Assembly (NCBI GenBank): GCA_043799545.1
Contig: JAZDNO010000022.1
Span: forward strand, 1-56,134
Source of the DNA: Methanobacteriota archaeon
GTDB taxonomy: Archaea > Thermoplasmatota > Thermoplasmata > SG8-5 > DAIRED01
Reading direction: 5' to 3'
Length of the DNA: 56,134 bases
Numbering within the stretch: position 1 is the stretch's first letter; every line of letters starts with the position of its first letter. Below are positions 3,185 through 22,639 of the stretch, piece after piece. The notes beneath the pieces are model-generated. The model was not told where the DNA came from and searched no databases. It was given only the letters and a program-made list of their open reading frames with translations. A program made the translations under genes and the position numbers.

Positions 3185-3282
3185 TGTGTGATAGCGCCCC
3201 TATGTTAATAAAGCTTTTTCCTCACTATCACGTTTGATGGCGAAAGTATGAAATATCCATGCGGAATACTGGCCACGAGAAC

Positions 3283-4641
3283 ATGAAGAGAAACATCGTC
3301 GTCTTCGGGATGGGGTACGTCGGAATACCCGCGGCGGCGCTTTTTGCCGACGTGGATGGATTTTCCGTCACGGGCGTGCAGCGCAGGTCCAAGCGCTCGG
3401 GCTGGAAGATAGACTGGCTCAACAAGGGCAAGAACCCAATAGGCGGAGACGAGCCAGGGCTGTCCGAGCTGCTGGCGCGCGTTGTGAAGAAGGGGACGTT
3501 CTGGGTCACAGACAACCTGGACGTGGTCAAGAACGCCGAGGCCATACTCGTAGATGTCCAGACGCCGACGGAGAAGGACCACAAGCCCCGATACGAATCG
3601 CTCCGGGAGGTGAGCGAGCAGGTCGGGAAGCGCATGAGGAAGGGCGCGCTGGTCGTCATAGAGTCGACGGTCGCACCTGGCACGACCGAGAACATCGTGA
3701 AGCCGATTCTCGAAAAGGCGTCAGGGATGAAGGCAGGCAGGGATTTCTATCTCGCCTTCTCGTACGAGCGCGTGATGGTCGGCAGGCTCATCAAGAACAT
3801 CGTGTACTTGCCAAGGATAGTCGGCGGGACAGACAAGAAAAGCACAGAGCGGGCCATGGAGCTCTACGCTCATATAGTCAAGGCGAAGCTCTGCCCCACA
3901 GACGCGCTGACTGCCGAGGTTTCCAAGACCGTCGAGAACACATACCGTGACGTGAACATCGCGTTCTCGAACGAGGTGGCAATCATCTGCGAGAGCCTGG
4001 GCATAGATGCCTACGAGGTGAGGGAGCTTGTGAACACCCTGCCGAACGACCCGTCGAACCCTTCGTCGAACCCAGTCCGAAACATGCACTTCCCCGGCGC
4101 AGGCGTCGGCGGCCACTGCTTGCCCAAGGATTCATGGCTGCTGAAATACGGGCTCGACACGTACGGGAAGCTGCCCTTCCTGCCTAGGGTCATCGTGGAC
4201 TCCAGGGTGATAAACGACTGGATGCCGGTGCATGTGGCTGACTTGGTGGAGGAGGCCCTCAAGGAGCGGAAGCTGAAGCTCAGGGGCGCGAAGGTCGCGA
4301 TACTCGGCCTGGCATTCCTTGAGAACTCGGACGACACGCGCAACACGCCGTCGGCGACGCTCTACCTCGAGCTGAAGAGGCGCGGCGCGAAGCTGGCCAT
4401 GCACGACCCGCTGGTGCGCGAGCACGAGCTGCCTTTCACGGACAAGCTGGACGATGTTCTGAAGGGAGCGGACGCGGTCGTCCTCTCGACCAAGCACAAG
4501 GAGTACGCGAAGATTGACCTGAAGAAGCTTGCGAAGAAGGTGCGCACGCCCGTCATAGTGGACGGGCGCAACCTATGGGACCCGGAGAAGGTCAGGAAGG
4601 CCGGCTTCACCTACCGGGGCGTGGGGAAGGGGAAGAGGTAA
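3283..4641 (+). CDS. UDP-N-acetylhexosamine/nucleotide-sugar 6-dehydrogenase (WbpA/WecC family)
   Basis: Rossmann GMGYVG, IESTVAPGTT, ENTYRDVNIAFSNE, catalytic GGHCLPKD. Start set at MKRNIVV. Confidence 0.92.
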   Translation: MKRNIVVFGMGYVGIPAAALFADVDGFSVTGVQRRSKRSGWKIDWLNKGKNPIGGDEPGLSELLARVVKKGTFWVTDNLDVVKNAEAILVDVQTPTEKDHKPRYESLREVSEQVGKRMRKGALVVIESTVAPGTTENIVKPILEKASGMKAGRDFYLAFSYERVMVGRLIKNIVYLPRIVGGTDKKSTERAMELYAHIVKAKLCPTDALTAEVSKTVENTYRDVNIAFSNEVAIICESLGIDAYEVRELVNTLPNDPSNPSSNPVRNMHFPGAGVGGHCLPKDSWLLKYGLDTYGKLPFLPRVIVDSRVINDWMPVHVADLVEEALKERKLKLRGAKVAILGLAFLENSDDTRNTPSATLYLELKRRGAKLAMHDPLVREHELPFTDKLDDVLKGADAVVLSTKHKEYAKIDLKKLAKKVRTPVIVDGRNLWDPEKVRKAGFTYRGVGKGKR

Positions 4642-5021: not shown

Positions 5022-6920
5022 TCAGACCTCCCCTTTATTGTCTTCTGATGGAGGGTCTTTCTTCGCAATAAAAACAACAGAAGGACGGCTCAGCAGCCAG
5101 TAAGTCGTCACGATAGCCATCAAAATAATTATGCTGCACATTGAAGCACAGATATTATTCTGAATCCATGCTATGATTCCATACTCCTCACTGGTATGAT
5201 TGTTTGAAGTATCCTGAGCTGTGCTGCCGCTAATAGAGTTGACCTGGATCTCATAGCTCACCACGCCCGTGGGCATTGCCCCTTCAACCGAATAATACTC
5301 ATTATCCAGCACCAGATAATAGTTGTGAGAATTTGCCAACACAGTAGTAAATGTAGTGGTATTTTCAACAGATTGTTCGGCTACAAACCATCTGGTGTGC
5401 TCGTTCTCATAAATGTCTAACTCAGATTCACTCCCGAAAATGTAGAAATCTACATTTCCACCGTATGTTATTGTAATCTGAACATTGACATCTCTCAAGC
5501 CCATGGGAAAATAATAAGTTGCGTGATCTAATCCTTTTAAATCTCTTACTGTTGTCATACTACGATTGACTACATAATAATTGTCGATATTTGCATTTAG
5601 CACCCAAACAATGATTGCATCTGTGTCCCAATTATCATCTATGTCGGTCACGTTTAGAATCACATCATAGAATCCAGGCTTCTGAAATACATAATTCAAC
5701 GAGATATTTTGGGAGATTGTTGTCAAATTTCCCTCATAAACATGCCAAGTATAGTTTGCCACGTCATTATTGTCATACGAATATTCACCGTTAAACGACA
5801 CTGTTTCGTTTGGATAAGCAATAACATCACCGCCAGCATCAGCTATTGGGGGTTCTAAATCAATCACATTCACCTTGAAGTAATCAATATCTATATTCCC
5901 GCCACAGTCGAGTACTGTCAACGATACATTGACTATTCCCCGGCGATCAAATGTAAACTCTGGTGTGAATCCAAATAAAGTAATATTGATAATTACTTGT
6001 TCTTCATAATAATAATTGTAATTCTGGTATTGAAAAAACCAAGTACAATAAAGTATCCCAGTGTTGTCTAAAGATAAATTGCTATTGAAGAAATGCGACC
6101 CATTTAATTGGGCATCACAGTTCCCTCCAGCGTTGGCTGTAGGCGCGATGGAGTCGAAAATCCGAGGGCTAAATAAAATGTGTAAAAAACCCCAAGTTTG
6201 TGGCTCATATGCATCCACTTTATCCGCACTTGGCCAACCAGAATAACCAGATCCTATAGTACAGAACATCAGAGTTTCATTCGATGTAACGTTGATATCC
6301 TCCAAAGTACCTGTGCTCAAGGGCAACCACCATTCGGAATAATAGTATGTTCCATTGATACTTTCCGCATAACCACCATCATTATTCGAACCGTCATCAC
6401 CTGTTGTGGTCCACATTCCGAGTCGAATATTGGAATCGACGAAATCATCGTTATATAAATATTTTCTATCCGCATTAATTCCGTCCAGTATACCATCTGG
6501 CTCGCCATCATCATCTTCAAAAAGTATTTGCCATGTCGAATAATATGGTATGTTAGATGTAAATAAAAAATAGATATTCACTCCATTATGCTTTGCTTTA
6601 ATCGAAATATAACCCCCCGGACAATTACCCCTTGTTTCTTGTGCTTCGTCCCATTTGTCAGCTAAGGTTATTGTGCCATCCAAAACCGGTGTAGTTCCAG
6701 CGTACGCAATGATGCTATTTTTCACTGATGGCTCAACAACAGTATCCGAGTATATGGATTTTTTAGCACCATTTTCCGTGGATTTGGAATTCGCATAAAA
6801 TGACGATGACGGAGACGATATGCAAAACACTATAAGCAATAACCAAATGAGATTTCGTGTTGCGAATGTTTGTCGTCGTTTTTCTACACACATTGCGAAG
6901 GGATATGATTTTTCCGACAT
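5022..6920 (-). CDS. Secreted, membrane-anchored PKD-domain surface protein
   Basis: N-terminal signal, DOMON/CBM9-like segment (PVLDGTITLADKWDEA), two PKD units (PTANAGG, PIADAGGD), C-terminal TM helix; AT-rich. Confidence 0.8.
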   Translation of the reverse strand: MSEKSYPFAMCVEKRRQTFATRNLIWLLLIVFCISSPSSSFYANSKSTENGAKKSIYSDTVVEPSVKNSIIAYAGTTPVLDGTITLADKWDEAQETRGNCPGGYISIKAKHNGVNIYFLFTSNIPYYSTWQILFEDDDGEPDGILDGINADRKYLYNDDFVDSNIRLGMWTTTGDDGSNNDGGYAESINGTYYYSEWWLPLSTGTLEDINVTSNETLMFCTIGSGYSGWPSADKVDAYEPQTWGFLHILFSPRIFDSIAPTANAGGNCDAQLNGSHFFNSNLSLDNTGILYCTWFFQYQNYNYYYEEQVIINITLFGFTPEFTFDRRGIVNVSLTVLDCGGNIDIDYFKVNVIDLEPPIADAGGDVIAYPNETVSFNGEYSYDNNDVANYTWHVYEGNLTTISQNISLNYVFQKPGFYDVILNVTDIDDNWDTDAIIVWVLNANIDNYYVVNRSMTTVRDLKGLDHATYYFPMGLRDVNVQITITYGGNVDFYIFGSESELDIYENEHTRWFVAEQSVENTTTFTTVLANSHNYYLVLDNEYYSVEGAMPTGVVSYEIQVNSISGSTAQDTSNNHTSEEYGIIAWIQNNICASMCSIIILMAIVTTYWLLSRPSVVFIAKKDPPSEDNKGEV

Positions 6921-6946: not shown

Positions 6947-7864
6947 TCAGTCCCCGTACACGTTGAACTCGCTCTTCAAATTGTTGTAGGCCAGCGCGTC
7001 CAGCGTGCTCGGGTCCACCGAAATCAGGAATATCCCGCCGCTGACCGAAGCCACGTCGCGTATCCTCTGGGCGAACTTCAGGATGACTGGGAAGGAGTTG
7101 TTGCTTATGAGAAACTCGATGCCGTGGAGCATCACTATCCCCCCGGTCTCCTTGAGAAAACCGCCTATGGCGCGCGTCAGCTCGTGGTCGTACTGGCTCG
7201 GCTTGATGGACGGCACGTCCCCGGAGCTCTCGCTGGTGGAGAGCCAGACTATCTGGTAGTCGTGGCCGCATACGTCGTCGTACCGCTCCCTGGCCTTCGG
7301 CGGGAATATCCTGCTGATGCACAGGCCAGGCAAGCCGTACTTGACCGCCTTGGCGAAGATGTTGAACGTGGCGGGGGCGTTCTTCACCTCGTCTACGATG
7401 AGGTACGACTCGCCCCGCTCTAGCTTCGGTATGACCAGATCGCTGGAAACCTTCGACACAGGACGCTCCCGCGCCGCGGACGGGTCGCTCTTGGAAAGCT
7501 CGAAGGCGCCGTCCTTCACAGTGGCGACGTGTGGCTCGCCCAGCAGCTCGCCCAGCACCCCTGCGACGTAGCCAGCGCAGAAATGGTCGTCCTCCACGCT
7601 CCTCGCCCCCGACGGCCTGACTACGATTATCCCGCCGGCGCCCTGCTGGACCTCGATGCCGAGTATCCCGTCGGAGATGGCCGCCTGCGCCATCGCCCTC
7701 GGAAGCTCCCCGGGGCTCGCGCGCTGGCCCCGGGTGTTCGTGACGCCGACGATGTTGCCGTACTGATACAGAAGCCAGTCTGCCTCCTCCTTCCCCCCCT
7801 TCTGCTCCTCGAACGACCTCAGCTCCTTTATCGTTTCCGAGTCAACTGAAATCCTGTCACCCAT
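6947..7864 (-). CDS. V4R-like domain fused to DUF835 domain
   Basis: N-terminal LLYQYGNIVG...FCAGYVAGVLGELLG (V4R-like). C-terminal ESYLIV..GLCISR..IVWLS..IVMLHGIEFLISNNSF..ISVDP (DUF835). Overlaps the GTPase gene by 8 nt. Confidence 0.8.
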   Translation of the reverse strand: MGDRISVDSETIKELRSFEEQKGGKEEADWLLYQYGNIVGVTNTRGQRASPGELPRAMAQAAISDGILGIEVQQGAGGIIVVRPSGARSVEDDHFCAGYVAGVLGELLGEPHVATVKDGAFELSKSDPSAARERPVSKVSSDLVIPKLERGESYLIVDEVKNAPATFNIFAKAVKYGLPGLCISRIFPPKARERYDDVCGHDYQIVWLSTSESSGDVPSIKPSQYDHELTRAIGGFLKETGGIVMLHGIEFLISNNSFPVILKFAQRIRDVASVSGGIFLISVDPSTLDALAYNNLKSEFNVYGD

Positions 7865-8510
7865 CGACCGAACCTCCCAACTGATTCACAAGCTCGACGA
7901 AAGCCGCCTCGACGTTCTCCCCGGTCTTGGCGCTCGTGGCGAAGTACGGGAATTTGAGCCCGCGGCTGTTGCGCCCCATACCGGCCCATTTGACCAGGTG
8001 GGCGAGCGACACGGGTTCGAACGACGGCTCGATGCCGTAGAGCTTGACGTAGGCCTCGACGACGCCCCTGTGCCTCTCAAGCATGTGCTCGTGGAACCTG
8101 CCGGGAAGGCTCGACGCCACCTCGACCCCGGCGTCGCGCTCGAAGTCCCTGATGATGTCGTGCTTGTTGCCCAGCACGACCACCGGTATCTCGCCGGTGA
8201 CCTTGAACAGGTCCGCGAGCCAGTTGTCGAGGTTGTCGAAGGTCGTTTTGCGCGTGGAATCGTAGACTAGGAGCGCGCCCGCGGCGCCGCGGTAGTTGGC
8301 CATGTGCAGCTCCGGCCGGGACTTCTGGCCGTAGATGTCCCAAATCATCAGCGTCGTGGGGCCCATGACCTTCTTCTTGACGTTCACGCCGATGGTCGTG
8401 ATGTACTCGTCGCTGAAAGCCCCCTCGACGAATTTGCGAACCAGCGAGGTCTTGCCCACGGCGCCCTCGCCGAGCAAGACCACTTTGAAGCTCTTGGCCT
8501 CCGCCGCCAT
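7857..8510 (-). CDS. Rab-like small GTPase with a long G4-G5 insertion
   Basis: G1 GEGAVGKTS, G2 YITTIGV, G3 WDIYGQ, G4 NKHD, G5 TSAK, plus NYRGA and LVYDST. Start reassigned to ATG 8510 (MAAEAK). Confidence 0.9.
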   Translation of the reverse strand: MAAEAKSFKVVLLGEGAVGKTSLVRKFVEGAFSDEYITTIGVNVKKKVMGPTTLMIWDIYGQKSRPELHMANYRGAAGALLVYDSTRKTTFDNLDNWLADLFKVTGEIPVVVLGNKHDIIRDFERDAGVEVASSLPGRFHEHMLERHRGVVEAYVKLYGIEPSFEPVSLAHLVKWAGMGRNSRGLKFPYFATSAKTGENVEAAFVELVNQLGGSVDG

Positions 8511-8548
8511 AGAACCCGAATCTGTTTGGGGCGATATAAAAGCCTGCC

Positions 8549-9631
8549 TCACTTGCCCTTCACGAACTTCTTGACCAGCCCAGATATCCTCATCGCGTCG
8601 TCCTGAGTCACAGACGGGTGCACCGGTATCGACAAAACTTCCTTGGTCAGCCTCGCCACGACCGGGTTCTTCCCGAAGGTGCAGTTGCCCTTCATTATCT
8701 TCTGGTTGTGCAGAGGCATCGGGTAGTAGACTCGCGAGCCTATCCCCTCCTTTCCGAGCATCTCGGTCAGCTTGTCGCGTCCCCTCTTGACGCGGATGGT
8801 GTACTGATGGTAGACGTGGCGCCCCCACTTGGCCTCTCCGGGGGTCGCGACAATCCCCTCCAGCTCCTCGTTGTACAGCTTGGCCAGCCTGCGCCTGTAC
8901 TCGATGGCCGCAGGCAATTTCTTAAGCTGCTCAATCCCGATGGCCGCGGCTATCTCTGTCATGTGGTAGTTGTACCCCAGCATCGCGTGGGAGTACATCC
9001 CCTCCTGGCCGTGGTTGCGGATTAGATGGCATAGACGGTCCAGCTTCGGGTTGTTGGTAGTTATCATCCCTCCTTCGCCAGTCGTCATGTTCTTTGTCGG
9101 GTAGAAGCTGAAGCATGCTATGTCGCCGATAGAGCCGACCTTCTTGCCCTTGTACTCGGCGCCGTGCGCCTGGCAGGCGTCCTCGACGAGCCAGAGGTCC
9201 TTCTCCCTCGCCAGCTCCTGCAGCGGCTTGAGGTCTACCGGGTGTCCGTAGAGGTGGACCGGGGCGAGCATCTTCGTCTTCTTCGTGACCAGCCCGCGGG
9301 CTGCCGCCGCGTCCATTCCGAAGTAGTCCTCTTCGACGTCCGCCAGCGCCGGGACAGCCCCGATGTGAAGCAGCGGCGTGGCAGAGGCCGCGAACGTCAG
9401 GTCCGGCGTCACGCCCGAGTCGCCGCGTCCCATTCCGACCGCCAGATACGCCGTGTGCAAAGCCTGCGTGCCGTTGCCGACGGCGATGGCGAACTTGGCG
9501 CCTATGTATTCTGCGAAATCGTGCTCGAACTGGGCTACGACCTTGCCCTGCGCCAGCATCCCTGAATCCAAAACCGCCATCACGGCCTTCTTCTCTTCGT
9601 TCCCCAGGATTGGCTTGCCTATCGGTATCAT
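8549..9631 (-). CDS. DegT/DnrJ/EryC1/StrS-family sugar aminotransferase (WbpE-like)
   Basis: PVHLYGHP, VEDACQAHGA, FSFYPTKNMTTGEGG with the PLP lysine. Confidence 0.95.
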   Translation of the reverse strand: MIPIGKPILGNEEKKAVMAVLDSGMLAQGKVVAQFEHDFAEYIGAKFAIAVGNGTQALHTAYLAVGMGRGDSGVTPDLTFAASATPLLHIGAVPALADVEEDYFGMDAAAARGLVTKKTKMLAPVHLYGHPVDLKPLQELAREKDLWLVEDACQAHGAEYKGKKVGSIGDIACFSFYPTKNMTTGEGGMITTNNPKLDRLCHLIRNHGQEGMYSHAMLGYNYHMTEIAAAIGIEQLKKLPAAIEYRRRLAKLYNEELEGIVATPGEAKWGRHVYHQYTIRVKRGRDKLTEMLGKEGIGSRVYYPMPLHNQKIMKGNCTFGKNPVVARLTKEVLSIPVHPSVTQDDAMRISGLVKKFVKGK

Positions 9632-9646
9632 GTCATGGCCTCCGAA

Positions 9647-10267
9647 CTAAAACTTCCTGTGCTCCATCGGGACGACGCCGATTTTTCTCGCCGGGTTGCC
9701 GGCCACTATGGCGTATTCCTCGACGTCCTTGGTGACTATCGAGCCTGAGCCTATGCACGCCTCCTTGCCGATCCTCACGCCGGGCAGAATCGTGCTGTTC
9801 GCGCCTATGCGGACGCCCTTGCACACGTGCGCCCCGACCATCGGGTCCTTCGTGCGCCCCATGTATTTGTCGTTCGTGAAACATACGCGCGGGCCTACGA
9901 AGACGTCGTCCTCTATCTCCATGTTCGTCGGAATGTATACCGCAGTCTGGATGCTGCACCTGTTGCCGATTTTCACGAGGTTCTCGACAACTGTGTTCGT
10001 GCCGATGAGCGAGTTCTCGCCGACCGTTGTGTTCTCGCGCACGAGCGAGTAGTGCCCGGTCTGCGAGCCGTTCCCAAACCTGGTTTTGTTGTAGATGATT
10101 GTGAAATCGCGAATGACGCAGTTGTCGCCTATGTGCGCCCCTTCCAGCTTGTCGAACTCGCCCGAGAGCAAGATGGCCTTGTCGTCCTTGCCCGGGTGGC
10201 CGATGACGGCGCTTGGCCCGATGTACGTTCCCTTGCCTATCTTCGATTTTCCGTAAACTGTCGGCAT
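9647..10267 (-). CDS. Hexapeptide-repeat N-acetyltransferase (WbpD-like)
   Basis: Left-handed beta-helix repeats; [34 protein letters not shown]. Confidence 0.9.
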
Positions 10268-10270
10268 AGT

Positions 10271-11260
10271 TTAACCCCCGAAATCCTTCATCTCCACTTT
10301 CCGCTTCTCGGCCGACGATGCTATCGCGGCCAGCGCAACCTTCATGCTCTCCAGCCCCTCGATCCCGGACACGAGCGGCTCCGACCCACCCTTTATCGCT
10401 GCCAGGAAGTCCATGATTTCGTTCTTGAGCGGCTCCTGCTTCTTCAGTGAGATGTTGCGGATGTCGAATTCTAGGGGAGCGTGGAACAAATCCCCCTGGT
10501 CCAGCGAGACGTATTGAGAGCTCGATATCGTCACGCCCTGGGTCATGTAGTCCAGCTCGACGTAGTTCTTCATGCACGTGAGGGAGAGGCGGCGGACCTT
10601 CATGGGGGTGAGCCAGTTCGTCTGCGAGATGCCGGCCGTGCCGTTCTCGAATTCGATGAGGATGTCTGCATGGTCCTCGAACGGGGCTTCCCCCCGCCTG
10701 CCGCTCAGCGCGTACACGCTCTTCACCGGAGAGCCTGCCAGATAGCGCATCACGTCGATGTCGTGAATTCCCAGATCCAGGACGCAGCCCACGTCTTTTA
10801 TCCGCCCAGGCATGGAGGACACGCGCCTTGACGAGAGTGAGACCAGATCGCCGAAGCGCCCTTCCGCCAGCGCGCTCTTCGCGAAGCCGACGACGGGGTT
10901 GTGGCGCTCTATCATCCCTATTGCCAGGACTACGCCCGCCTTCTCAGCCGCCTTGAGCATCTCCCTGCCGTCCTTGACCGTCGCAGCTATGGGCTTCTCG
11001 CAGAGGACGTGCTTTCCGGCCTCCATGGCCTCGATGACCGTCTGCTTGTGGAACTGAGTTGGCGTTGCGACGACTATCGCATCCACCGATGCATACATGT
11101 CCGAGGGGGTGGCATATCCGCCGACAACGAATCGCGTGGCAATCTCTGTTCTCGCCTTCGTGTCCGGGTCCGCAACGCCTCCGAGCGCCCCCATCTCCGA
11201 CAGCACGCGCGCGTGGTTCCGCCCCATGGAGCCCACGCCGACCACGCCAACCTTCGTCAT
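10271..11260 (-). CDS. Gfo/Idh/MocA oxidoreductase (WbpB-like sugar 3-dehydrogenase)
   Basis: VGVVGVGSMGRNH, EKP motif, DLGIHDID. Start reassigned to MTKVGVVG (11260). Confidence 0.9.
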   Translation of the reverse strand: MTKVGVVGVGSMGRNHARVLSEMGALGGVADPDTKARTEIATRFVVGGYATPSDMYASVDAIVVATPTQFHKQTVIEAMEAGKHVLCEKPIAATVKDGREMLKAAEKAGVVLAIGMIERHNPVVGFAKSALAEGRFGDLVSLSSRRVSSMPGRIKDVGCVLDLGIHDIDVMRYLAGSPVKSVYALSGRRGEAPFEDHADILIEFENGTAGISQTNWLTPMKVRRLSLTCMKNYVELDYMTQGVTISSSQYVSLDQGDLFHAPLEFDIRNISLKKQEPLKNEIMDFLAAIKGGSEPLVSGIEGLESMKVALAAIASSAEKRKVEMKDFGG

Positions 11261-11285
11261 GGGTGGGGGGAGAACCAGGTGATTA

Positions 11286-11310
11286 TTAACCTTTTCTGGG
11301 AAAGGGTTAA
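11286..11310. promoter_or_regulatory. Back-to-back divergent BRE/TATA promoters forming an 11-bp inverted repeat
   Basis: TTAACCTTTTC-TGG-GAAAGGGTTAA (one mismatch) in the 75-bp gap between the sugar operon and the deacetylase. Confidence 0.55.
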
Positions 11311-11335
11311 AGCCTGGCGGAGCATGCCATACCAT

Positions 11336-14734: not shown

Positions 14735-17700
14735 TCACCCGCTGCCTATTTCGATATCAATGGTTTCTCGGGCCATCGCTCCGCCATTGTCAGTAATTGT
14801 CAAGGTGACTGTGTAGGTTGATGGCCCGGCGAATGTGTGCGCCACGATTGCACCTTCAGCGGCGGTGCCATCTCCGAAGTCCCAAACATACGAAGCGATT
14901 GCGCCATCACGGTCATAGGATTCCGATGCGTCAAAGAAGAACTGGTAGTTGTTCAAGGCCACGCCGTCCAAGTATGATGTGCTCAACGTGATTTCCTGGT
15001 AATATCCGCATAGAGTGTTGAATTCTTTAAAGAATGAAAGGGTATCGTCTCCAGAGGTGAACTTCAGCCACGTTGGATTCTCGCCAGGATGATTGGCCGA
15101 ATATTTCAGAATGACCGAATAGCTGCGTCCAAGGTACTTGTTCAGGACCATCGTTTGTGTGTCTGGGGCTCCGGTGCCTCGCGTCACCGACATCTGTCGG
15201 ATGAGTTCGCCATCTTCGTAGATTTCAACTGTAACCGTGTTACCCTTTCGACCCGCGATTTTGACCGAAACGAATACCTCTTGGTACACACCGATTTGTT
15301 GCACTGGTGGCCTATTGGGGATTTCAACGACTCTCGTCAGGGATGTAGTCAATCCATTCTCAAACACGATTGTGAGGTTCACTGTGTAGCTCCCGGATTC
15401 CGTGAACGGAAATTCATGCAATCCAGTATCATGCTGAGTTATGACCGTTCCGTTCCCAAAGTCCCATATGAGGGTTTCGGGTTGTATCAAGCCCTCTCTG
15501 CTGATGTGTGGAGCGCAATATACAGTCGTGCTGTTCTCGTAAAATTCCTTGATTGTCGCGTCCAAATCGACGATTCTTTCTTGGATTAAGCCATCCGCTG
15601 CATTGAAATCGAAATGCATCGTGCGGGAGCGCGTTCCCGATTCTATGGTCACATCGACAGTATTTGCACCCGTGCCAGAATTTTCATACCTCAACACCAT
15701 GAGCATGCCATATCCGACCGGATTGCGAAGCGTCAGAGATTTGCTCTCTGGCTCTCCGCCACTTAAGGTGACATCCCCAATTATTTTCGATGCGTTGCCT
15801 TGAGTGGCGATGAAATATATCTCGACGGCGTTGTTTTCCGCTCCGCTCACGGTCGCGGTCGCGTCGATTTGTTGGATAATCTCGATATCGTCAATCTTCA
15901 CATATCGCTGGATAATGGTATAATATCCCTTCGTGTACAATATTATGTCACGGTATTCCGTCTCCGGCGCCTCGTATGGAAATTCGAGGTCCACATATTC
16001 CCCGCAGTTCAGTTCCACATACGTTTCATCGCCGTATGCCAGCTCATCCATCACGTCGCCGTCAACCGAATGCACAGCGGAGGTCAGCACACATGTTGTA
16101 TCAATAAAATCACCGCCCTCCGATTGGTCCAGACCGACGAAGTCGACTTGGTGGTGCGCCCTCCACGAGATATTCACATGCAGATAATCGGTCGATGCCT
16201 GTAGGAAAGAAGTCAAATCAAAGACATCGATGCTCCACAATTCCCTTGGTATGATGGAACCGACCTGAATCCAATCCCCATCGGCATTTAAAATTCGGAT
16301 TTCTATCGGACCGTATAGCGGTTCGATGGCGTCCCAAGGAAGATAGTCGTAAGTGCATTTCAAATCGGACCTGAGTATTAGTTTTGCTGGCTTGCCGTAA
16401 TCGCAAGCGAATTTCACAACCAAACAATCATCCTTGTACCCATCATAATATTCATCGCCCATTGCCCCGACGACATTCGTGAGGTTCGCGTTGTTTTTAT
16501 CAAGACAGGAAAGCGGGGGAACGGGGTCTCCGTAGATGACTATATAGCCTTCCGGGGTCACGCCGACATTGAAATCGCCATCGTGGTCTATTGTGATGAG
16601 TTCGGCGTTGTCTATGTAAGATATCTCAAACAATTCCCCCTCCATTATTCGGAATTTGTATTTGTCCCCGACCGGAACCGGAGATTTTTGCAGGACGTAT
16701 GCATCGTCTATCATCGAACTCTGTTTGCTGAAATCTTCGGAATTCGTGAGCAGGCTGTTGTCCGGTTCGTAATTCGTGCCGTTCCATACCCAAACGTAAG
16801 GGCAGGATGGAGGCCACACCTTGTTATGTACCAATACTCCACCTGCGAAATAGTTATGGTTGTTCTCGACTTCCAGATTGTAGACAACGGCAGTCTTTTC
16901 GATGACCTCTCTCGATAAAACAGGAACATCCCCATCAATCCCGATCAAGGTATCTCCAATGGTGATATTTTCAGCGTTCTTAATCAAGTTTTGTGTGTAT
17001 ATCGGGTGGTTTCCAGTGACTTCGAGACCATTGATTTTCAAATATGAATCAACTGTGTGGTTCGATGTGTATATCACGGTGTCCGTTTCTATCTCTCCGG
17101 TTCGTTCGTTGTACGACAATATCCGGTCCCCTTGCGCTATGTTCTCGATATTCGCCTCACCGTTCGGGGTCGACACTTTGGTCCCGCCGACGAAACAGTA
17201 ACCCGGCGGTGGCGCCGACCATGGGACTTGATCCGTGGCGAAGGTTACCGTAAGGGAATCCGTGTGTTTGCCCGTAGAATCTACCGCTCTGACAAAGAGC
17301 GTGAAAACATTGCTTGAAGGTAGACCGCCTACGGCTTCGAACGGGTCTGTTGTGGTTTGCAATAAATTACTGCTGCCCGAATAGACCCAATAAATTTGGT
17401 AAACAACTGGCGATACATCGATTGATGCGGTCCATTCCAACCAAACACTGGTCACACTTGGATTAACAGTATGAATGATGGGAGCTGTGGGATTTTCCGT
17501 ATCGATTTGGATTTTATAGGTTCCAATCGGATAGGTGTTAGTATTCGTGTGTTTAAAGGATACATGGAGGTACCATAATCCTTCTTGAACATTAGTTAGA
17601 CCAATTGTTGTTGTGGCTGGGGAGTCGACCGTAGTTGTGCCAGCGGCGAGTGGGTCGGGGAGGTTGCTTGGATTGCTGTCGTGGTTTAAAACATAATAAA

Positions 17701-17830
17701 GTTTCGCCACACTCGATAATGATGGACCGGCCCAAGTAACCACAGGATTGACATCCGTATACCATTCTTCTTGATTTGGGTGTGTCGATGAGGTCAATGA
17801 CGTTAAAACAATAGTATCCTGTACTTGCAC
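14735..17830 (-). CDS. C-terminal part of a giant surface protein (FN3, Hint, uncharacterised beta-domain, PKD); probably continuous with the upstream subtilase via a frameshift
   Basis: No signal peptide and a GTG start in the middle of a repeat unit. The same frame extends upstream as TVICQVNDRCGNLVQVQDTIVL. Ends with a PKD domain (FFDASESYDRDGAIASYVWDFGDG). Confidence 0.85.
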   Translation of the reverse strand: MQVQDTIVLTSLTSSTHPNQEEWYTDVNPVVTWAGPSLSSVAKLYYVLNHDSNPSNLPDPLAAGTTTVDSPATTTIGLTNVQEGLWYLHVSFKHTNTNTYPIGTYKIQIDTENPTAPIIHTVNPSVTSVWLEWTASIDVSPVVYQIYWVYSGSSNLLQTTTDPFEAVGGLPSSNVFTLFVRAVDSTGKHTDSLTVTFATDQVPWSAPPPGYCFVGGTKVSTPNGEANIENIAQGDRILSYNERTGEIETDTVIYTSNHTVDSYLKINGLEVTGNHPIYTQNLIKNAENITIGDTLIGIDGDVPVLSREVIEKTAVVYNLEVENNHNYFAGGVLVHNKVWPPSCPYVWVWNGTNYEPDNSLLTNSEDFSKQSSMIDDAYVLQKSPVPVGDKYKFRIMEGELFEISYIDNAELITIDHDGDFNVGVTPEGYIVIYGDPVPPLSCLDKNNANLTNVVGAMGDEYYDGYKDDCLVVKFACDYGKPAKLILRSDLKCTYDYLPWDAIEPLYGPIEIRILNADGDWIQVGSIIPRELWSIDVFDLTSFLQASTDYLHVNISWRAHHQVDFVGLDQSEGGDFIDTTCVLTSAVHSVDGDVMDELAYGDETYVELNCGEYVDLEFPYEAPETEYRDIILYTKGYYTIIQRYVKIDDIEIIQQIDATATVSGAENNAVEIYFIATQGNASKIIGDVTLSGGEPESKSLTLRNPVGYGMLMVLRYENSGTGANTVDVTIESGTRSRTMHFDFNAADGLIQERIVDLDATIKEFYENSTTVYCAPHISREGLIQPETLIWDFGNGTVITQHDTGLHEFPFTESGSYTVNLTIVFENGLTTSLTRVVEIPNRPPVQQIGVYQEVFVSVKIAGRKGNTVTVEIYEDGELIRQMSVTRGTGAPDTQTMVLNKYLGRSYSVILKYSANHPGENPTWLKFTSGDDTLSFFKEFNTLCGYYQEITLSTSYLDGVALNNYQFFFDASESYDRDGAIASYVWDFGDGTAAEGAIVAHTFAGPSTYTVTLTITDNGGAMARETIDIEIGSG
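16823..17197 (-). other. Hint (intein-like/BIL) domain, 125 aa
   Basis: Block A CFVGGTKV, block B VTGNHPIY, block F/G VYNLEVENNHNYFAGGVLVHN followed by Lys; no endonuclease domain. Confidence 0.9.
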
Positions 17831-17862
17831 TAGATTTCCACAACGATCATTTACTTGGCATA

Positions 17863-20800
17863 TTACTGTTTTGTTCCCACGACGGGCGAGAGAATCCAGT
17901 TTTTTATTATTATTTGACCTGAAGGATAGTTATAAAAATTGACCCAATCAGACCAACCAATGCCATCCGAGCAGTATCGGAAAGCCCATAGGCCTATGCC
18001 AGAATCAGATGCTGACAAAGTCAAGGTCACACTTTGGCTGGGGGTGTATTCGGCTCCGTCATTGATATATGCTGATGCAGTGGGCGGAGTCATGTCTAAA
18101 ACAATCGTATCGCTTGATGTAGCAACATATCCGTTATAATCCAACACCTGATAATAAACTATCTTAGTCCCGGAGCCAGCGGTCAATATCCATGCTTTTG
18201 TTAGGGATGGGTTCTCCCAGAGCTCGGTGTCCCACGTTCCATCATTTGAATATCTCGCTAACCAGACGCCTGCACCAGTACTCTTGTATGTGAGTGATAA
18301 AGATACTGAGGTTGTTGCAGTATACTCGTTATAGTTATTGATAATTATTGAGCAAGAAAGAGGTATGGTATCGATCCAGAAAGGACCGATATGATATGCG
18401 TTTCCGTTCCAATTACCAGCGTTATCTTTAGTTCTTATATGAAAATATATATTATTTCCGTCAGCTTGCGCGGGACTAGTGGTGCTTGTTACTGTTGAAG
18501 CTATGTCTACGGTTGTATCTGGAATGGTAGTCGCGCTGGTTGACCATTGTGTCGAATAACCAGCCACTCCGCTCCCTCCTGCATCAGAGGCTCCCGACCA
18601 GCTAACGTCTATCGTGTTGTCGCTTGACCATGCGTTCACTGGTGGGTTTGATGTATAACTTGTGGGGTTCGTAGGAGCTACAGTGTCGATTTTAAATGGT
18701 CCTACATGATAAGCTCCTGGATTCCAATTGCCAGCATTATCTCTTGTTCTAATATGCAGGTACCAGTTTGTGCCATCGCTTAGTGCATTACTCGTGGTAC
18801 TAGTCCCTCCAGTATCAGAAGTGGCATCTGGAATTGTTGACGGATTAGTTGACCATTCGATTGAATATCCATAAACCCCACTATCTGCGTCTGATGCTCC
18901 AGACCAGCTTATTAAAATAGTGTTGTCGTTTGACCATGTGTTTATAGATCGATCTGAGCTGTAACTTGTGGGATTTATGGGCGATACTGCATCTAGTGGT
19001 ATCGCTCTACTCCATATTACATTGGACGAAGAAACCCCCCAATTACTCGACGCAACTTCAATCCAGATTTTATATTTATGATTCGGATATATGTCTTGGT
19101 TAAAAGTAAATGTTTTGGTATTTATATCTGAGATAATTGTTCCAGATTGAGGCAAGATATATGGATTGCCATATGTATCCCTTCCTTCGCCCCAGATTCG
19201 GTAATATACGAAATCGTTAGCATTATTGTTATACTTAGTCCATGTAACCTTGACCGAAGAGGTGGCTCTCACATTCGGCGGATTCAAAATAACTTCACCT
19301 GGATTATAACTGTCAATGAAATTTAAACAAGACTGTGCGTTAACTTGACCATAACCTGTATAACGATCCCAGCCATCAATAGCAATTTCTTGTCCAGAAG
19401 CATATATTAGATCGGTTGCGGTGACATTTATTATCGCTCTTACTTCAGCATTTGTTAATGAAGGTCTATATGACCAAATCAATGCAGCTACTCCGGCAAC
19501 AAGGGGTGCTGCAGCGGATGTGCCACTATATGGAATATAATTGTTGTTTGCAATTGTGCCGACAATCGATGTACCAGGAGCCATTACATCAAGTCTTGGA
19601 CCATAGTTGCTACCGCATCCTTCTATCCAGTCCGTAGGCGTAGCTCTCATATCAGCTGTGGTTGTTGCTCCTACGGCGATTACAGAGTCATAACTCGCCG
19701 GAACATAACTCTTACCATTATTTGTTAATCCAATTCCCCCATCTTCGTTGTTCCCACTCGCAGCAATAACCAGACAACCATTATTCCAAGCATCTACCAG
19801 TAATGAGTTAAATGTTGGGGAGATGTCATACCACCCAAAACTCATGCTGATTATATTTGCGTTATCCTTTACATATCTCAAAGATTGCCATAGCGCAACC
19901 GATGATACTGCGGGTGGCATATCCAGGCCATTAGTTCCACTACCACCACCTCCGAGTCTAATCGCCATTAATTTGCAATTGGCTACTCCTGAGATTCCAA
20001 TATTATTATTTATTCTAGCACCAACAATCCCTGCACAATATGTTCCGTGATACTCACCAACATACTCATCCATGGGGCCGTTAATTCCAGTATATTCATA
20101 TTGTTCATTATTACCAGTTATTGGATTTACTCTTGTCGAAGAGTCTATAAAGTCAAAACCATAATAATCATCAACATAACCATTATTATCATCATCAATA
20201 TTATTTGTTGATTTATTTTCTCCATTCGTATCTAATACTTTTTCTCCAGGATTATTCCACATATTGGATGTTAAATCTTCGTGGGTATAATCAATACCAC
20301 TGTCCATAATCGCGACAACTACTTGTTCATTACCTCTGGTTTTATCCCAGGCTTCTGGTACATTGATGCGCTTTAATCCCCACTGGTCTGTTGAGTATCT
20401 AGGATCATTAGGTATAAAATGATAATCCAAAACGACCATTCGATCGGATTCAACCAATTCGACTGAGGCATGTTTAGTAATTTTATCAATGAAAATATTC
20501 AATTTAATATATTTATCGTGTTGGTTCAAAGTCGAATTGCATACTTTAAATATAATTATACACGAATCGTTCCAGATATCAAATATTGTGGTGTTTAACG
20601 CATTAGCTAGTAAATTTATATTTTCTGGCATAGTATAAAATTTAACAAGAACTAATCCTGTTAAATTCCAACTTTCTGAATTCGCAATAGTCGTAGATCT
20701 TGTTAAATTGGTGGATTGATTCTCTCCATTTAAATCGGTTTGAATGGTTCGATAATACACGGGGAAAATTTCATCGGTTTTTAATTTCGCAAATCCATTG

Positions 20801-20874
20801 ATTGAAAACAAAGTAGCTATTAACGAGAAAGTTATTGTAACACATACACATCGCCTTAGAAACTTATTAGGCAT
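17863..20874 (-). CDS. S8 subtilase (thermitase-like) with FN3 and repeated Ig-like modules; N-terminal part of a frameshifted giant gene
   Basis: Signal peptide; triad VAIMDSGID / HGTYCAG / GTSAAAP; oxyanion-hole ASGN. Ends abruptly at ...VVGTKQ* in the middle of a repeat. Confidence 0.92.
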   Translation of the reverse strand: MPNKFLRRCVCVTITFSLIATLFSINGFAKLKTDEIFPVYYRTIQTDLNGENQSTNLTRSTTIANSESWNLTGLVLVKFYTMPENINLLANALNTTIFDIWNDSCIIIFKVCNSTLNQHDKYIKLNIFIDKITKHASVELVESDRMVVLDYHFIPNDPRYSTDQWGLKRINVPEAWDKTRGNEQVVVAIMDSGIDYTHEDLTSNMWNNPGEKVLDTNGENKSTNNIDDDNNGYVDDYYGFDFIDSSTRVNPITGNNEQYEYTGINGPMDEYVGEYHGTYCAGIVGARINNNIGISGVANCKLMAIRLGGGGSGTNGLDMPPAVSSVALWQSLRYVKDNANIISMSFGWYDISPTFNSLLVDAWNNGCLVIAASGNNEDGGIGLTNNGKSYVPASYDSVIAVGATTTADMRATPTDWIEGCGSNYGPRLDVMAPGTSIVGTIANNNYIPYSGTSAAAPLVAGVAALIWSYRPSLTNAEVRAIINVTATDLIYASGQEIAIDGWDRYTGYGQVNAQSCLNFIDSYNPGEVILNPPNVRATSSVKVTWTKYNNNANDFVYYRIWGEGRDTYGNPYILPQSGTIISDINTKTFTFNQDIYPNHKYKIWIEVASSNWGVSSSNVIWSRAIPLDAVSPINPTSYSSDRSINTWSNDNTILISWSGASDADSGVYGYSIEWSTNPSTIPDATSDTGGTSTTSNALSDGTNWYLHIRTRDNAGNWNPGAYHVGPFKIDTVAPTNPTSYTSNPPVNAWSSDNTIDVSWSGASDAGGSGVAGYSTQWSTSATTIPDTTVDIASTVTSTTSPAQADGNNIYFHIRTKDNAGNWNGNAYHIGPFWIDTIPLSCSIIINNYNEYTATTSVSLSLTYKSTGAGVWLARYSNDGTWDTELWENPSLTKAWILTAGSGTKIVYYQVLDYNGYVATSSDTIVLDMTPPTASAYINDGAEYTPSQSVTLTLSASDSGIGLWAFRYCSDGIGWSDWVNFYNYPSGQIIIKNWILSPVVGTKQ
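17929..18985 (-). repeat. Intragenic protein-level repeats: two ~105-aa and two ~95-aa modules
   Basis: D..P.NPTSY.S....N.WS.DNTI..SWSGASDA..SG..GYS..WST...TIPD...HIRT.DNAGNWN..AYH.GPF.IDT occurs twice, followed by S..IN....YT....V.L.L....G......YS.DG..W modules. Boundaries are approximate. Confidence 0.7.
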
Positions 20875-22639
20875 TTTTTCTCCTCCTTATTTTATAGAGT
20901 ATAATTATTAAAGGAGATAAACACAACAACGTAAATATGAATCCCCACCAGAGAATGATATTATTGCCAAACCATCCATAACCATCAATCTCTGATTGAA
21001 CAACAGTTATATCTGAATCGATATAGAAACCATTTGTATAGTATGTTCTAACCTTGAAATATTTTACATCAGTGACTGATAAATTTGTTATACTAAAGGT
21101 CGTTTGGTTTTTATCCAATATTGTAAATATTGTGTTCTTGTTAAACTGATTATCAAGTGAGAAGTAGATTTCATATTTTAGAAAATCTGGAGCAGTACTT
21201 CCTGACCAAGAGATGTTATATGCCGGTAAGGGTATTGTACTAAAAGACACATCGACCGAAGCAGCAATTGGGAGTTGAAAAAATGAAACGAAGATGCTAC
21301 TTGTACTATTATTTCGATAATCATCCCACGCGACATATAAAATATTTGAGAATTGATCTAATCCAATCGAAGAATACCCATTCGACCCATACCAGATATC
21401 ATTTGTCGGCGCATCATTCACGCGATTGTCGCCATTCCAATTATAACCACGATCTGGTGAATAGGATAAATAAATGGAATCGCCATTCCAAGAATCATCT
21501 CTTCCGGACCATGTTATAAGCGGATTCCCATTTCTGTCAACTGCGAGCCTGACTTGAGCTGTATCCCCATAAAGACGAGTAGCTTTTTCCATCAGGTCAG
21601 TTTCTATTTGGACATTTGAGCTAGACTTGGTAGTATCTTCTGAAGGTCGCCATGGACAAGAATAATTTTTATTAATTAGCTTTGGTGCCGTCCATGTAGT
21701 ACTATGATCATCTGACATTGAAAGAAAAATACCATCCTTTCTTGTTTCATTAATCGGCACACCGTCTCCTTCCCATGCAACAAAAATACGATTTCCCCAA
21801 CAGGCTATAGCCGGAGTATAGACATTACCGCCTCCAGTATAATTAGGTCCATATACTTCTACACTTTTAGTCCAATGCTCACCGTTGTCAATAGATTTGT
21901 GTATAATTATATGTGCAAAATTATATGAATAAGTTATATAAAGTACTCCTGAATCAGATAAGACCATTGATGGATATTTACCGAAATCATACGGTAAGGA
22001 TGCATTTTTATCATTGATAATCTTTTCCACCCAAGAGGTCCCTCCATTATTTGATCTCGAAAAAATTACATTCGTACGAGGAATCTGAGGGTCGCTCCAG
22101 TTAAAGCTCAGCCATACAGCAAATATCGTGTTTGTATTAGCACATACTATCGTCGGTTCGGTTTGTGCTTCGCCCCCATTACTGTTGATAATCACTGGGG
22201 TACTCCAAGTATCTCCTTCATCTGTACTCTTTACCAGGCAGATATCTGGATTTCCTAATTTATCGGTAGTCCAAGCTACATATACGGTATTATCAGTTAC
22301 ATATATCGTTGTACGCTGAGACGTATTGTACGAACATCCCATATCCCCGTTGATTTTTACACTCGTGCCGAACGTTAACCCATTGTCCGTTGATTTTGAA
22401 TAATAAATGTCACATGAATTAATTTGGCTTCTTGAATCGTACCAGGTCGCATGGACAACACCGTTTTTCCCAACAGCTAGAGCCGGGTGATTCTGGTTTG
22501 AAGTAATGGCTGTTTCGTTAGATAAAAGTAAATTATCACTAAATGGTATATCCGCATGAACTAATGGTAGAATTGTTGTTAAAAGAGCAAATGTTACAAT
22601 GAGGGTAATACGACATCTGTTGAATTTTATTAAATACAT
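20867..22639 (-). CDS. BNR/Asp-box (sialidase-like) beta-propeller surface protein with FN3 and C-terminal TM
   Basis: Six Asp-boxes (SKSTDNGLTF, KSTDEGDTW, SRSNNGGTSW, KSIDNGEHW, SMSDDHSTTW, SYSPDRGYNW). Overlaps the subtilase gene by 8 nt; very AT-rich. Confidence 0.85.
   Translation of the reverse strand: MYLIKFNRCRITLIVTFALLTTILPLVHADIPFSDNLLLSNETAITSNQNHPALAVGKNGVVHATWYDSRSQINSCDIYYSKSTDNGLTFGTSVKINGDMGCSYNTSQRTTIYVTDNTVYVAWTTDKLGNPDICLVKSTDEGDTWSTPVIINSNGGEAQTEPTIVCANTNTIFAVWLSFNWSDPQIPRTNVIFSRSNNGGTSWVEKIINDKNASLPYDFGKYPSMVLSDSGVLYITYSYNFAHIIIHKSIDNGEHWTKSVEVYGPNYTGGGNVYTPAIACWGNRIFVAWEGDGVPINETRKDGIFLSMSDDHSTTWTAPKLINKNYSCPWRPSEDTTKSSSNVQIETDLMEKATRLYGDTAQVRLAVDRNGNPLITWSGRDDSWNGDSIYLSYSPDRGYNWNGDNRVNDAPTNDIWYGSNGYSSIGLDQFSNILYVAWDDYRNNSTSSIFVSFFQLPIAASVDVSFSTIPLPAYNISWSGSTAPDFLKYEIYFSLDNQFNKNTIFTILDKNQTTFSITNLSVTDVKYFKVRTYYTNGFYIDSDITVVQSEIDGYGWFGNNIILWWGFIFTLLCLSPLIIILYKIRRRKNA

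Follow-up and report, generated by a model that had tools for sequence, protein, structure and literature searches.

A Rab-like GTPase and a V4R-like-DUF835 protein encoded by a co-inherited gene pair in Thermoplasmatota

Several described systems resemble the locus that we report here, a pair of overlapping genes of which the first encodes a Rab-like small GTPase and the second, hereafter the partner, a protein with a V4R-like N-domain and a C-terminal DUF835 domain. The pair lies on contig JAZDNO010000022.1 of assembly GCA_043799545.1, which belongs to an archaeon of the Thermoplasmatota. The whole contig of 56,134 nucleotides (nt) was analysed and is called the window below; it is contig C6 of a source genome that comprises 2.06 Mb in 31 contigs, is 94% complete and has metagenome-assembled genomes of Thermoplasmatota as its relatives.

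In the MglA-MglB system, as in ours, a small Ras-superfamily GTPase adjoins, and is co-inherited with, one dedicated non-enzymatic partner. However, MglB is a Roadblock/LC7 protein with the role of a GTPase-activating protein or guanine nucleotide exchange factor (GEF), while the partner described here combines a V4R/Bet3 fold with an apparently dead KaiC domain. The G3 motif is atypical in the MglA family and is a canonical DxxGQ in our GTPase; together with the Rab-like best matches, this places the GTPase on the 'Rup'/Rab-like side rather than in the MglA family. The TRAPP core (3cue), the Asgard TRAPPC3 (7yh2) and the Thorarchaeota Rab (Thor-Rab, 7ezb) share with our locus the association of a Bet3/V4R-fold protein with a Rab-like GTPase. 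In TRAPP, longin subunits supply most of the GEF/Rab-binding surface (PMC10933270). Unlike there, the V4R domain here is fused to DUF835, Pfam scans of the six flanking genes find no longin subunit, and the host belongs to the Thermoplasmatota. Moreover, Tran et al. wrote that the GTPase genes of Asgard MK-D1 do not as a rule share operons with genes for Roadblock, longin or TRAPPC3 (PMC10933270), whereas the linkage here is operonic.

The closest fold and profile matches of the N-domain are found in XylR, DmpR and PoxR (XylR_N plus V4R), and the layout of a V4R sensor followed by a P-loop-type domain is that of DmpR; but the partner has no AAA+ or DNA-binding output, no longer has the cysteine site and goes together with a GTPase. 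The C-domain has the fold of KaiC-like proteins, FlaH/ArlH and the REC-DUF835 proteins, in which DUF835 is listed as an inactivated KaiC ('iKaiC') output domain of archaeal response regulators (PMC5847659). It differs from these in lacking a Walker A motif and in that its input would be a V4R-fold domain and a GTPase, not a receiver domain.

A 2015 survey found archaeal Rup GTPases without conserved neighbours (PMC4316618), Surkont and Pereira-Leal recorded one Rab-like gene each for a Thermoplasmatales archaeon and for Aciduliprofundum, with no neighbour analysis (PMC4915359), and Podar et al. linked V4R to Bet3, not to GTPases (PMC2253512). In the library that we searched, no paper was found that describes a V4R-DUF835/GTPase pair or that connects small GTPases with V4R or DUF835 through their gene neighbourhoods. 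In our opinion the locus deserves attention because it bears on how small GTPases acquired regulators before eukaryotes. The generally non-operonic arrangement reported for Asgard GTPase genes makes their partners hard to assign, while the present pair is apparently co-translated, is co-inherited and in some genomes is the sole such pair, so that the partner can be assigned straight from the genome. Further, both products are small soluble proteins suited to bench tests, and the role of DUF835, a widespread and unstudied 'dead KaiC' domain, is touched as well.

The gene pair and its conservation

A preliminary description, made from the letters of the window, had proposed two genes that overlap by 8 nt, and this is indeed what we find: ATGGGTGA is common to the end of one gene and the beginning of the other, and it is preceded by a Shine-Dalgarno-like signal (Table 1). 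The partner start is supported because orthologues begin with the same MGD or MGN residues. A longer, GTG-started frame of the GTPase reaches back to position 8828; it runs into the upstream DegT gene, and the starts of orthologues give it no support. A TATA-like TTTTATAT is placed within the 38-nt gap that separates the DegT gene from the GTPase gene, which suggests that the pair is transcribed from a promoter of its own into a leaderless or short-leader mRNA.

Table 1. Features of the gene pair in the window
Feature	Position	Strand	Basis or remark
Rab-like small GTPase gene	7857..8510	minus	217 amino acids (P0001)
G4-to-G5 helical insert region (about residues 119-188)	7947..8156	minus	AlphaFold2 model and conservation in relatives
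Partner gene (V4R-like + DUF835)	6947..7864	minus	305 amino acids (P0002)
Partner N-domain (residues 1-128), diverged V4R/Bet3 fold	7481..7864	minus	VIA-align and hhalign
Partner C-domain (residues 141-305 + stop), DUF835, 'iKaiC' fold	6947..7444	minus	Pfam and VIA-align
Stop/start overlap ATGGGTGA	7857..7864	minus	8 nt common to GTPase stop and partner start; read from sequence
Shine-Dalgarno-like GGAGGT (GGAGG at 7873-7877)	7872..7877	minus	inside the GTPase 3' end; 7 nt before the partner ATG
TATA-like box TTTTATAT	8534..8541	minus	centre about 27 nt upstream of the GTPase ATG; read from sequence

The arrangement is not peculiar to the window. We found 20 loci of the partner's subfamily in GTDB species genomes, 19 of them with upstream DNA, and in 17 of these 19 a GTPase with the helical insert described below (insert-type) lies directly upstream on the same strand. 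The genes of 13 such pairs overlap by 4 nt, those of three by more, and those of one are separated by a gap of 2 nt. The longer overlaps are of 8 nt, in the window and at locus L086, and of 17 nt, at L094; since the starts at loci other than the window are those of the longest open reading frames (ORFs), some of the overlap lengths there, such as 17, 26 or 142 nt, are probably too large. As 16 of 17 related pairs overlap by at least 4 nt and the remaining one shows a gap of 2 nt only, we do not regard the overlap as a product of chance, and the two genes are, as judged from their sequence, translationally coupled.

The two exceptions among the 19 loci are long forms of 1047 amino acids that adjoin a different Ras gene. 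These proteins (L087:1772-4915 and L102:6001-9147, each of about 1047 amino acids) consist of a Cys-less V4R-like domain and DUF835, followed by about 750 residues with zinc ribbons; each adjoins a 'long' Ras gene of 270-280 codons on the opposite strand, and neither has an overlapping GTPase gene. We considered the long forms as a Rosetta stone for the function of the pair and rejected this, because beyond V4R-like-DUF835 they hold only zinc ribbons and unassigned sequence.

A phylum-wide sample of 400 genomes was searched from the side of the partner as well as from the side of the GTPase. About 25 of the 31 V4R-containing DUF835 matches, from at least 15 GTDB families, adjoin a Ras-like gene, where adjacency was read from coordinates and related genomes are non-independent samples. 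From the other side, with one GTPase locus counted per genome, 13 of the best 30 adjoin a gene for V4R plus DUF835, and seven adjoin a gene for a 149-residue protein that has the V4R fold only. Hence the constant neighbour is V4R and not DUF835. The conserved neighbourhood that the preliminary description had in mind is therefore present, in 17 of 19 loci of the subfamily and in 20 of the 30 best GTPase loci. The V4R-only arrangement takes a minimal form at L064-L066, L070-L072 and L074 (family f30, genomes of 1.1-1.4 Mb), where the GTPase gene is followed at 14-17 nt by the gene for the 149-residue protein. This protein matches our A2 profile (1e-15 to 1e-22) and not Pfam V4R; A2 is a broader alignment of the N-domains of GTPase-linked proteins, six of whose nine members match Pfam V4R and XylR_N.

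Flanking genes vary between lineages and only the pair itself is conserved. The order PAC2 - GTPase - V4R plus DUF835 is kept at L049, L050, L052 and L054 (genomes G389, G230, G314 and G305, of three GTDB families). In G389 the next genes after the pair encode a pyruvoyl arginine decarboxylase and a zinc-ribbon protein, and G314 and G305 have ORFs of matching size at this place. Neither G389 nor G230 contains a Ras-family match other than the paired GTPase.

Maximum-likelihood trees of 26 GTPases and of their 26 partners share one bipartition (support 99/97 and 100/99) and agree in their sub-clades, so GTPase and partner diverged together. The pair has been inherited as a unit across Thermoplasmatota. 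Close to it are canonical Ras-(Ras)-V4R-DUF835 loci, such as G000:C2:114662-116983 in the source genome itself, which are of the same module type, gene order and coupling, with DUF835 halves that are 36% identical. However, the V4R domain of the canonical loci is Pfam-positive and has a cysteine triad, and their GTPases, frequently two in number, lack the insert, whereas the pair in the window has a single insert-bearing GTPase and a Cys-less V4R domain, and forms a separate clade in both trees. The paralogous loci of the source genome are of the order Ras-Ras-V4R+DUF835 on contig C2 and Ras-Ras-V4R on contig C28.

Domains of the two proteins

The GTPase matches Pfam Ras (PF00071) with E 1.7e-34 and 119.1 bits (cut-off 21.6), and NCBIfam assigns it to the generic small_GTP domain only. 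Its best matches among PDB sequences are Rab21 (2e-26) and the Thorarchaeota Rab (2.3e-26), and the top Foldseek matches of its AlphaFold2 model (pLDDT 85.4) are all Rabs, namely Rab25, Rab4, Rab43, Rab8 and Thor-Rab. The motifs G1 (GEGAVGKT at residue 14), G3 (DIYGQ at 58), G4 (NKHD at 115) and G5 (SAK at 193) are intact, including the catalytic Gln of DxxGQ, in the window's GTPase and in 60 of 60 aligned relatives. With all catalytic motifs present, the protein probably cycles between GTP and GDP states. The window's GTPase has no C-terminal cysteine. A prenylatable C-terminal Cys motif was looked for in 60 family members, and none of the 60 has a Cys in its last six residues. When the GTPase is compared by eye with what we take to be the RabF motifs, IGV, YRGA and LVYD.T are present, and the presumed RabF3 region after DxxGQ is divergent (KSRPELH). 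The GTPase is Rab-like by its best sequence and structure matches, and not a Rab in the eukaryotic sense.

What distinguishes this GTPase is the region between G4 and G5, which is modelled as four helices (residues 117-127, 136-146, 148-158 and 169-177; pLDDT of the block 82-96), while Ras and Rab have one, alpha4; the net gain is about 45 residues. Residues F139, H147, P162, F164, V167 and W175 of the insert are conserved in 60 relatives. The spacing from NKHD to SAK is 78 residues in the window and 70-78 in insert-type GTPases generally, as against 27-30 in relatives without the insert. About 85 metagenomic clusters contain such GTPases of 205-227 residues, some of them named 'Rab family GTPase' by NCBI; where an organism is named it belongs to the Thermoplasmatota, apart from one 'Euryarchaeota archaeon' and one 'Nanoarchaeota archaeon'.

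The N-domain of the partner belongs to the V4R superfamily as a diverged member. We place it there because structure alignment, the A2 profile, hhalign and neighbours in the ESM Atlas agree. In VIA-align its best match is PoxR (5fru, Z 12.3 over 126 residues, 2.6 A), followed by Bet3 in the TRAPP-Ypt1 complex (3cue_B, Z 10.9, 121 residues), Thor TRAPPC3 (7yh2_A, Z 10.7), 7b6d_F and the V4R protein MJ1460 (2oso), both at Z 10.6, Bet3-TPC6B (2cfh_A, Z 10.3) and BcsD (Z 10.1). When the A2 profile is compared with PDB sequences, the best match is again PoxR, at full length (E 0.012). An alignment of the window's own subfamily (A4) was set by hhalign against one of Pfam-positive V4R domains (A5), with a probability of 97.4%, E 1.1e-11 and 109 aligned columns, and the ESM Atlas neighbours are V4R clusters with template modelling scores of 0.77-0.81. 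Foldseek aligns the partner as a whole to DmpR, that is, to a V4R sensor followed by a P-loop domain. BLASTP of the N-domain against the V4R paralogues of the same genome gave no alignment, and the partner has no match in NCBIfam.

The canonical set A5 carries an invariant cysteine triad (C-x-F-x2-G-Y ... E-x2-C ... C). All three cysteines are gone in 17 of 17 insert-type pairs, the window's own included, and the Cys-less domains have the subfamily motif DD-x-F-C/I/L-AGY; D92 and D93 of the partner are invariant.

In the C-terminal half, residues 166-300 match Pfam DUF835 (PF05763) with E 1.7e-21 and 76.8 bits (cut-off 33.1). VIA-align of residues 141-305, taken from the AlphaFold2 model of the partner (pLDDT 83.5), finds FlaH/ArlH (4yds, Z 15.3), PH0284 (2dr3, Z 13.3), RecA (Z 12.6) and KaiC (Z 12.3), and Foldseek agrees with this fold. 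No Walker A motif ([AG]x4GK[ST]) was found in any of 11 members of the partner family, for which reason the DUF835 domain is predicted to be a pseudo-ATPase. Two assignments of the preliminary description, a Rab-like GTPase and a DUF835 domain that is a degenerate RecA/KaiC-type fold, are borne out by these matches.

The source genome has 15 DUF835 matches and 11 Ras-family matches. One DUF835 protein, L105 (G000:C12:21475-26394, minus strand), is a 1639-residue fusion in which an entire class I tRNA synthetase (tRNA-synt_1, Anticodon_1 and DUF5915, isoleucyl-type) is joined to HHH, TPR and a C-terminal DUF835; frames of about 1390-1465 codons with a terminal DUF835 occur in many genomes of the class, and the tRNA synthetase/DUF835 fusion looks widespread. 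Other DUF835 fusions of the source genome involve a DnaA-like AAA ATPase (L106, C24:80932-83130), PAS plus HTH (L109, C24:32449-33945), TPR arrays in two tandem genes (L110 and L111, C18:133501-136593) and a protein with multiple transmembrane segments (L107, C11:6244-8157). TPR-Ras fusions of 335 residues are encoded in other Thermoplasmatota (L068:1012-2019 and L076:1369-2376). Given these together with the DUF835-TPR proteins of the source genome, the TPR, DUF835, V4R and Ras domains look like a recurring network.

Proposed function and alternatives

We consider it fairly probable that the two genes form a dedicated module, in which the GTPase is a switch and the partner its adaptor or regulator. 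The Rab-like GTPase would cycle between its GTP and GDP states, and the partner would be made in step with it by means of the overlapping stop and start codons. The V4R/Bet3-fold N-domain would be the part of the partner that faces the GTPase, and the DUF835 domain an oligomerising or docking output that ties the switch to other machinery. The partner might act on the GTPase as a GEF, a GTPase-activating protein or a GDI-like factor, or it might be an effector. This assignment of roles is our inference from two facts: V4R adjoins GTPases with or without DUF835, while DUF835 is fused to many unrelated domains. Since the cysteine site is gone and the GTPase carries an added helical insert, in our view the V4R domain of this subfamily would bind proteins rather than sense small molecules; the distinct lineage that carries both traits points the same way. 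This argument is suggestive only, because both changes happened once, on the same branch. Nevertheless the lineage offers a natural contrast, with and without insert and with and without cysteines, for the mapping of an interface. That the two proteins bind physically, which domain makes the contact and in which direction a signal passes are likewise inferred. A prediction of the complex from GTPase and partner alignments, with GTP and Mg, gave a score of 0.00 and had no controls, so it speaks neither for nor against binding. The preliminary description spoke of an uncharacterised archaeal GTPase signalling pair, and this is probably a fair description of what the sequences suggest.

Several observations weigh against such a module and should be stated. 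Pfam V4R (PF02830) gives no match at E<=10 to the partner or to its 10 closest relatives; the V4R-like N-domain claimed at the outset stands all the same, on VIA-align, hhalign, the PDB profile search and the ESM Atlas. At ten of the 30 best GTPase loci there is neither a V4R nor a DUF835 gene within 1.5 kb, and a second insert-type GTPase copy (G096:C87, L056) likewise lacks both at this distance. The DUF835 domain is not GTPase-specific, since in the source genome it is fused to isoleucyl-tRNA synthetase, to a DnaA-like ATPase, to PAS-HTH and to TPR. Finally, one single branch of the trees accounts both for the acquired insert and for the lost cysteines. It would be tempting to take their co-occurrence as repeated co-evolution of the two proteins, and we rejected this, because two changes on one branch amount to one event.

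Could the partner be a GEF in the manner of TRAPP? Its V4R/Bet3-fold domain, perhaps as a dimer, would then directly catalyse the release of GDP, and the pair would be a minimal archaeal counterpart of TRAPP and Rab. The alignments of the N-domain to Bet3, Thor TRAPPC3 and Bet3-TPC6B agree with this, as do the Rabs among the best sequence and fold matches of the GTPase and the constancy with which V4R-fold genes adjoin such GTPases. However, the bacterial sensor PoxR is no less similar: its score tops those of Bet3 and TRAPPC3 by 1.4 to 2.0 Z units, and it is also the best PDB profile match. It follows that the N-domain is not specifically Bet3-like. Further, most of the Rab-binding surface of TRAPP is given by longin subunits, and Pfam finds no longin or Roadblock match in the six flanking genes, no search having been made for divergent longin folds in the rest of the genome. 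In our opinion direct GEF activity of this kind is unlikely. For the same reasons, and because the lineage is Thermoplasmatota and not Asgard, we do not retain the 'proto-Rab/TRAPP-type module' of the preliminary description; the label 'TRAPP-type' can be used only as an analogy of fold.

We are equally doubtful about a ligand-gated switch, in which a small molecule would be bound by the V4R domain, as in XylR, DmpR and PoxR, and the signal would either be passed on to the GTPase by way of DUF835 or gate a GTPase effector. The best structural and profile match of the N-domain is indeed the phenol-binding sensor of PoxR, the entire partner aligns to DmpR in Foldseek, and the canonical relatives retain the Cys triad and match Pfam V4R and XylR_N. 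But with the triad cysteines absent from every one of the insert-type pairs, the ancestral metal or ligand site is gone, although a different pocket is possible. Of the two roles of the V4R domain, protein-protein contact and small-molecule sensing, we favour the former, on grounds that are suggestive only.

That the genes are merely co-transcribed and functionally independent, their adjacency being a matter of shared regulation or inheritance, seems to us very unlikely. DUF835 is a promiscuous module and some GTPase loci lack a V4R neighbour, as such independence would have it; however, the stop/start overlap is kept in 16 and the gene order in all of the 17 subfamily pairs, the pair persists while its flanks change, the sole Ras gene of two genomes is the paired one, and the trees of GTPase and partner are congruent. 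We can hardly credit an anti-virus or conflict system built from a small GTPase switch and a V4R sensor, even though conflict systems of the V4R-effector and small-GTPase kinds have been put forward for bacteria (bioRxiv 10.64898/2026.10.19.760177), because PADLOC has no match for the GTPase, the partner or the two genes downstream, there is no effector domain, a housekeeping context (PAC2, arginine decarboxylase) of the pair is conserved in four genomes, and the trees look vertically inherited.

The reading that we prefer, a dedicated module of GTPase switch and adaptor or regulator, can be extended to a bolder one. The partnership between a V4R fold and a Rab-like GTPase would be an old archaeal invention, preserved outside Asgard as a minimal co-translated module of two genes; V4R would directly bind and regulate the GTPase, by exchange or by stabilising one state, the dead KaiC domain would couple the switch to KaiC-type hubs, and the eukaryotic TRAPP-Rab relation would descend from, or parallel, such a module. 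We think this improbable as a whole. If it were true, the TRAPP-Rab relation could be studied by experiment on this module as its minimal model.

Genomic surroundings

According to Pfam, the six genes that flank the pair in the window encode a UDP-sugar dehydrogenase, a Zn-ribbon protein, a PKD surface protein, DegT, a hexapeptide transferase and an oxidoreductase. The PKD-domain surface protein (632 residues; 5022-6920, minus strand) starts 26 nt past the partner gene, in a stretch of lower GC content (48-51%). It has an N-terminal signal or transmembrane segment, a C-terminal transmembrane anchor and a tail of about 22 residues. Of the 20 related loci, 12 have a large beta-propeller (PQQ_2/BamB-like) surface protein next to the pair, and the four such proteins that were scanned with Pfam also have PKD or fn3 domains. 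Such a neighbour may be due to chance in genomes rich in surface proteins, or it may indicate a link to a receptor. We did not adopt the surface protein as a part of the module, since it recurs only loosely when conserved neighbours are clustered.

Genes of nucleotide-sugar metabolism lie on both sides (8549-11335 on the minus strand and 3259-4641 on the plus strand) and encode a DegT aminotransferase, a hexapeptide acetyltransferase, a Gfo/Idh/MocA oxidoreductase and the UDP-sugar dehydrogenase; the set resembles the diacetamido-sugar pathway for surface glycans. Further along, at 14735-22639 on the minus strand, there are three large consecutive ORFs (1031, 1003 and 590 codons) with a GC content of 34-47%, against about 60% elsewhere. 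The product of the first of them is similar to the beta-propeller surface proteins that adjoin the pair in other genomes.

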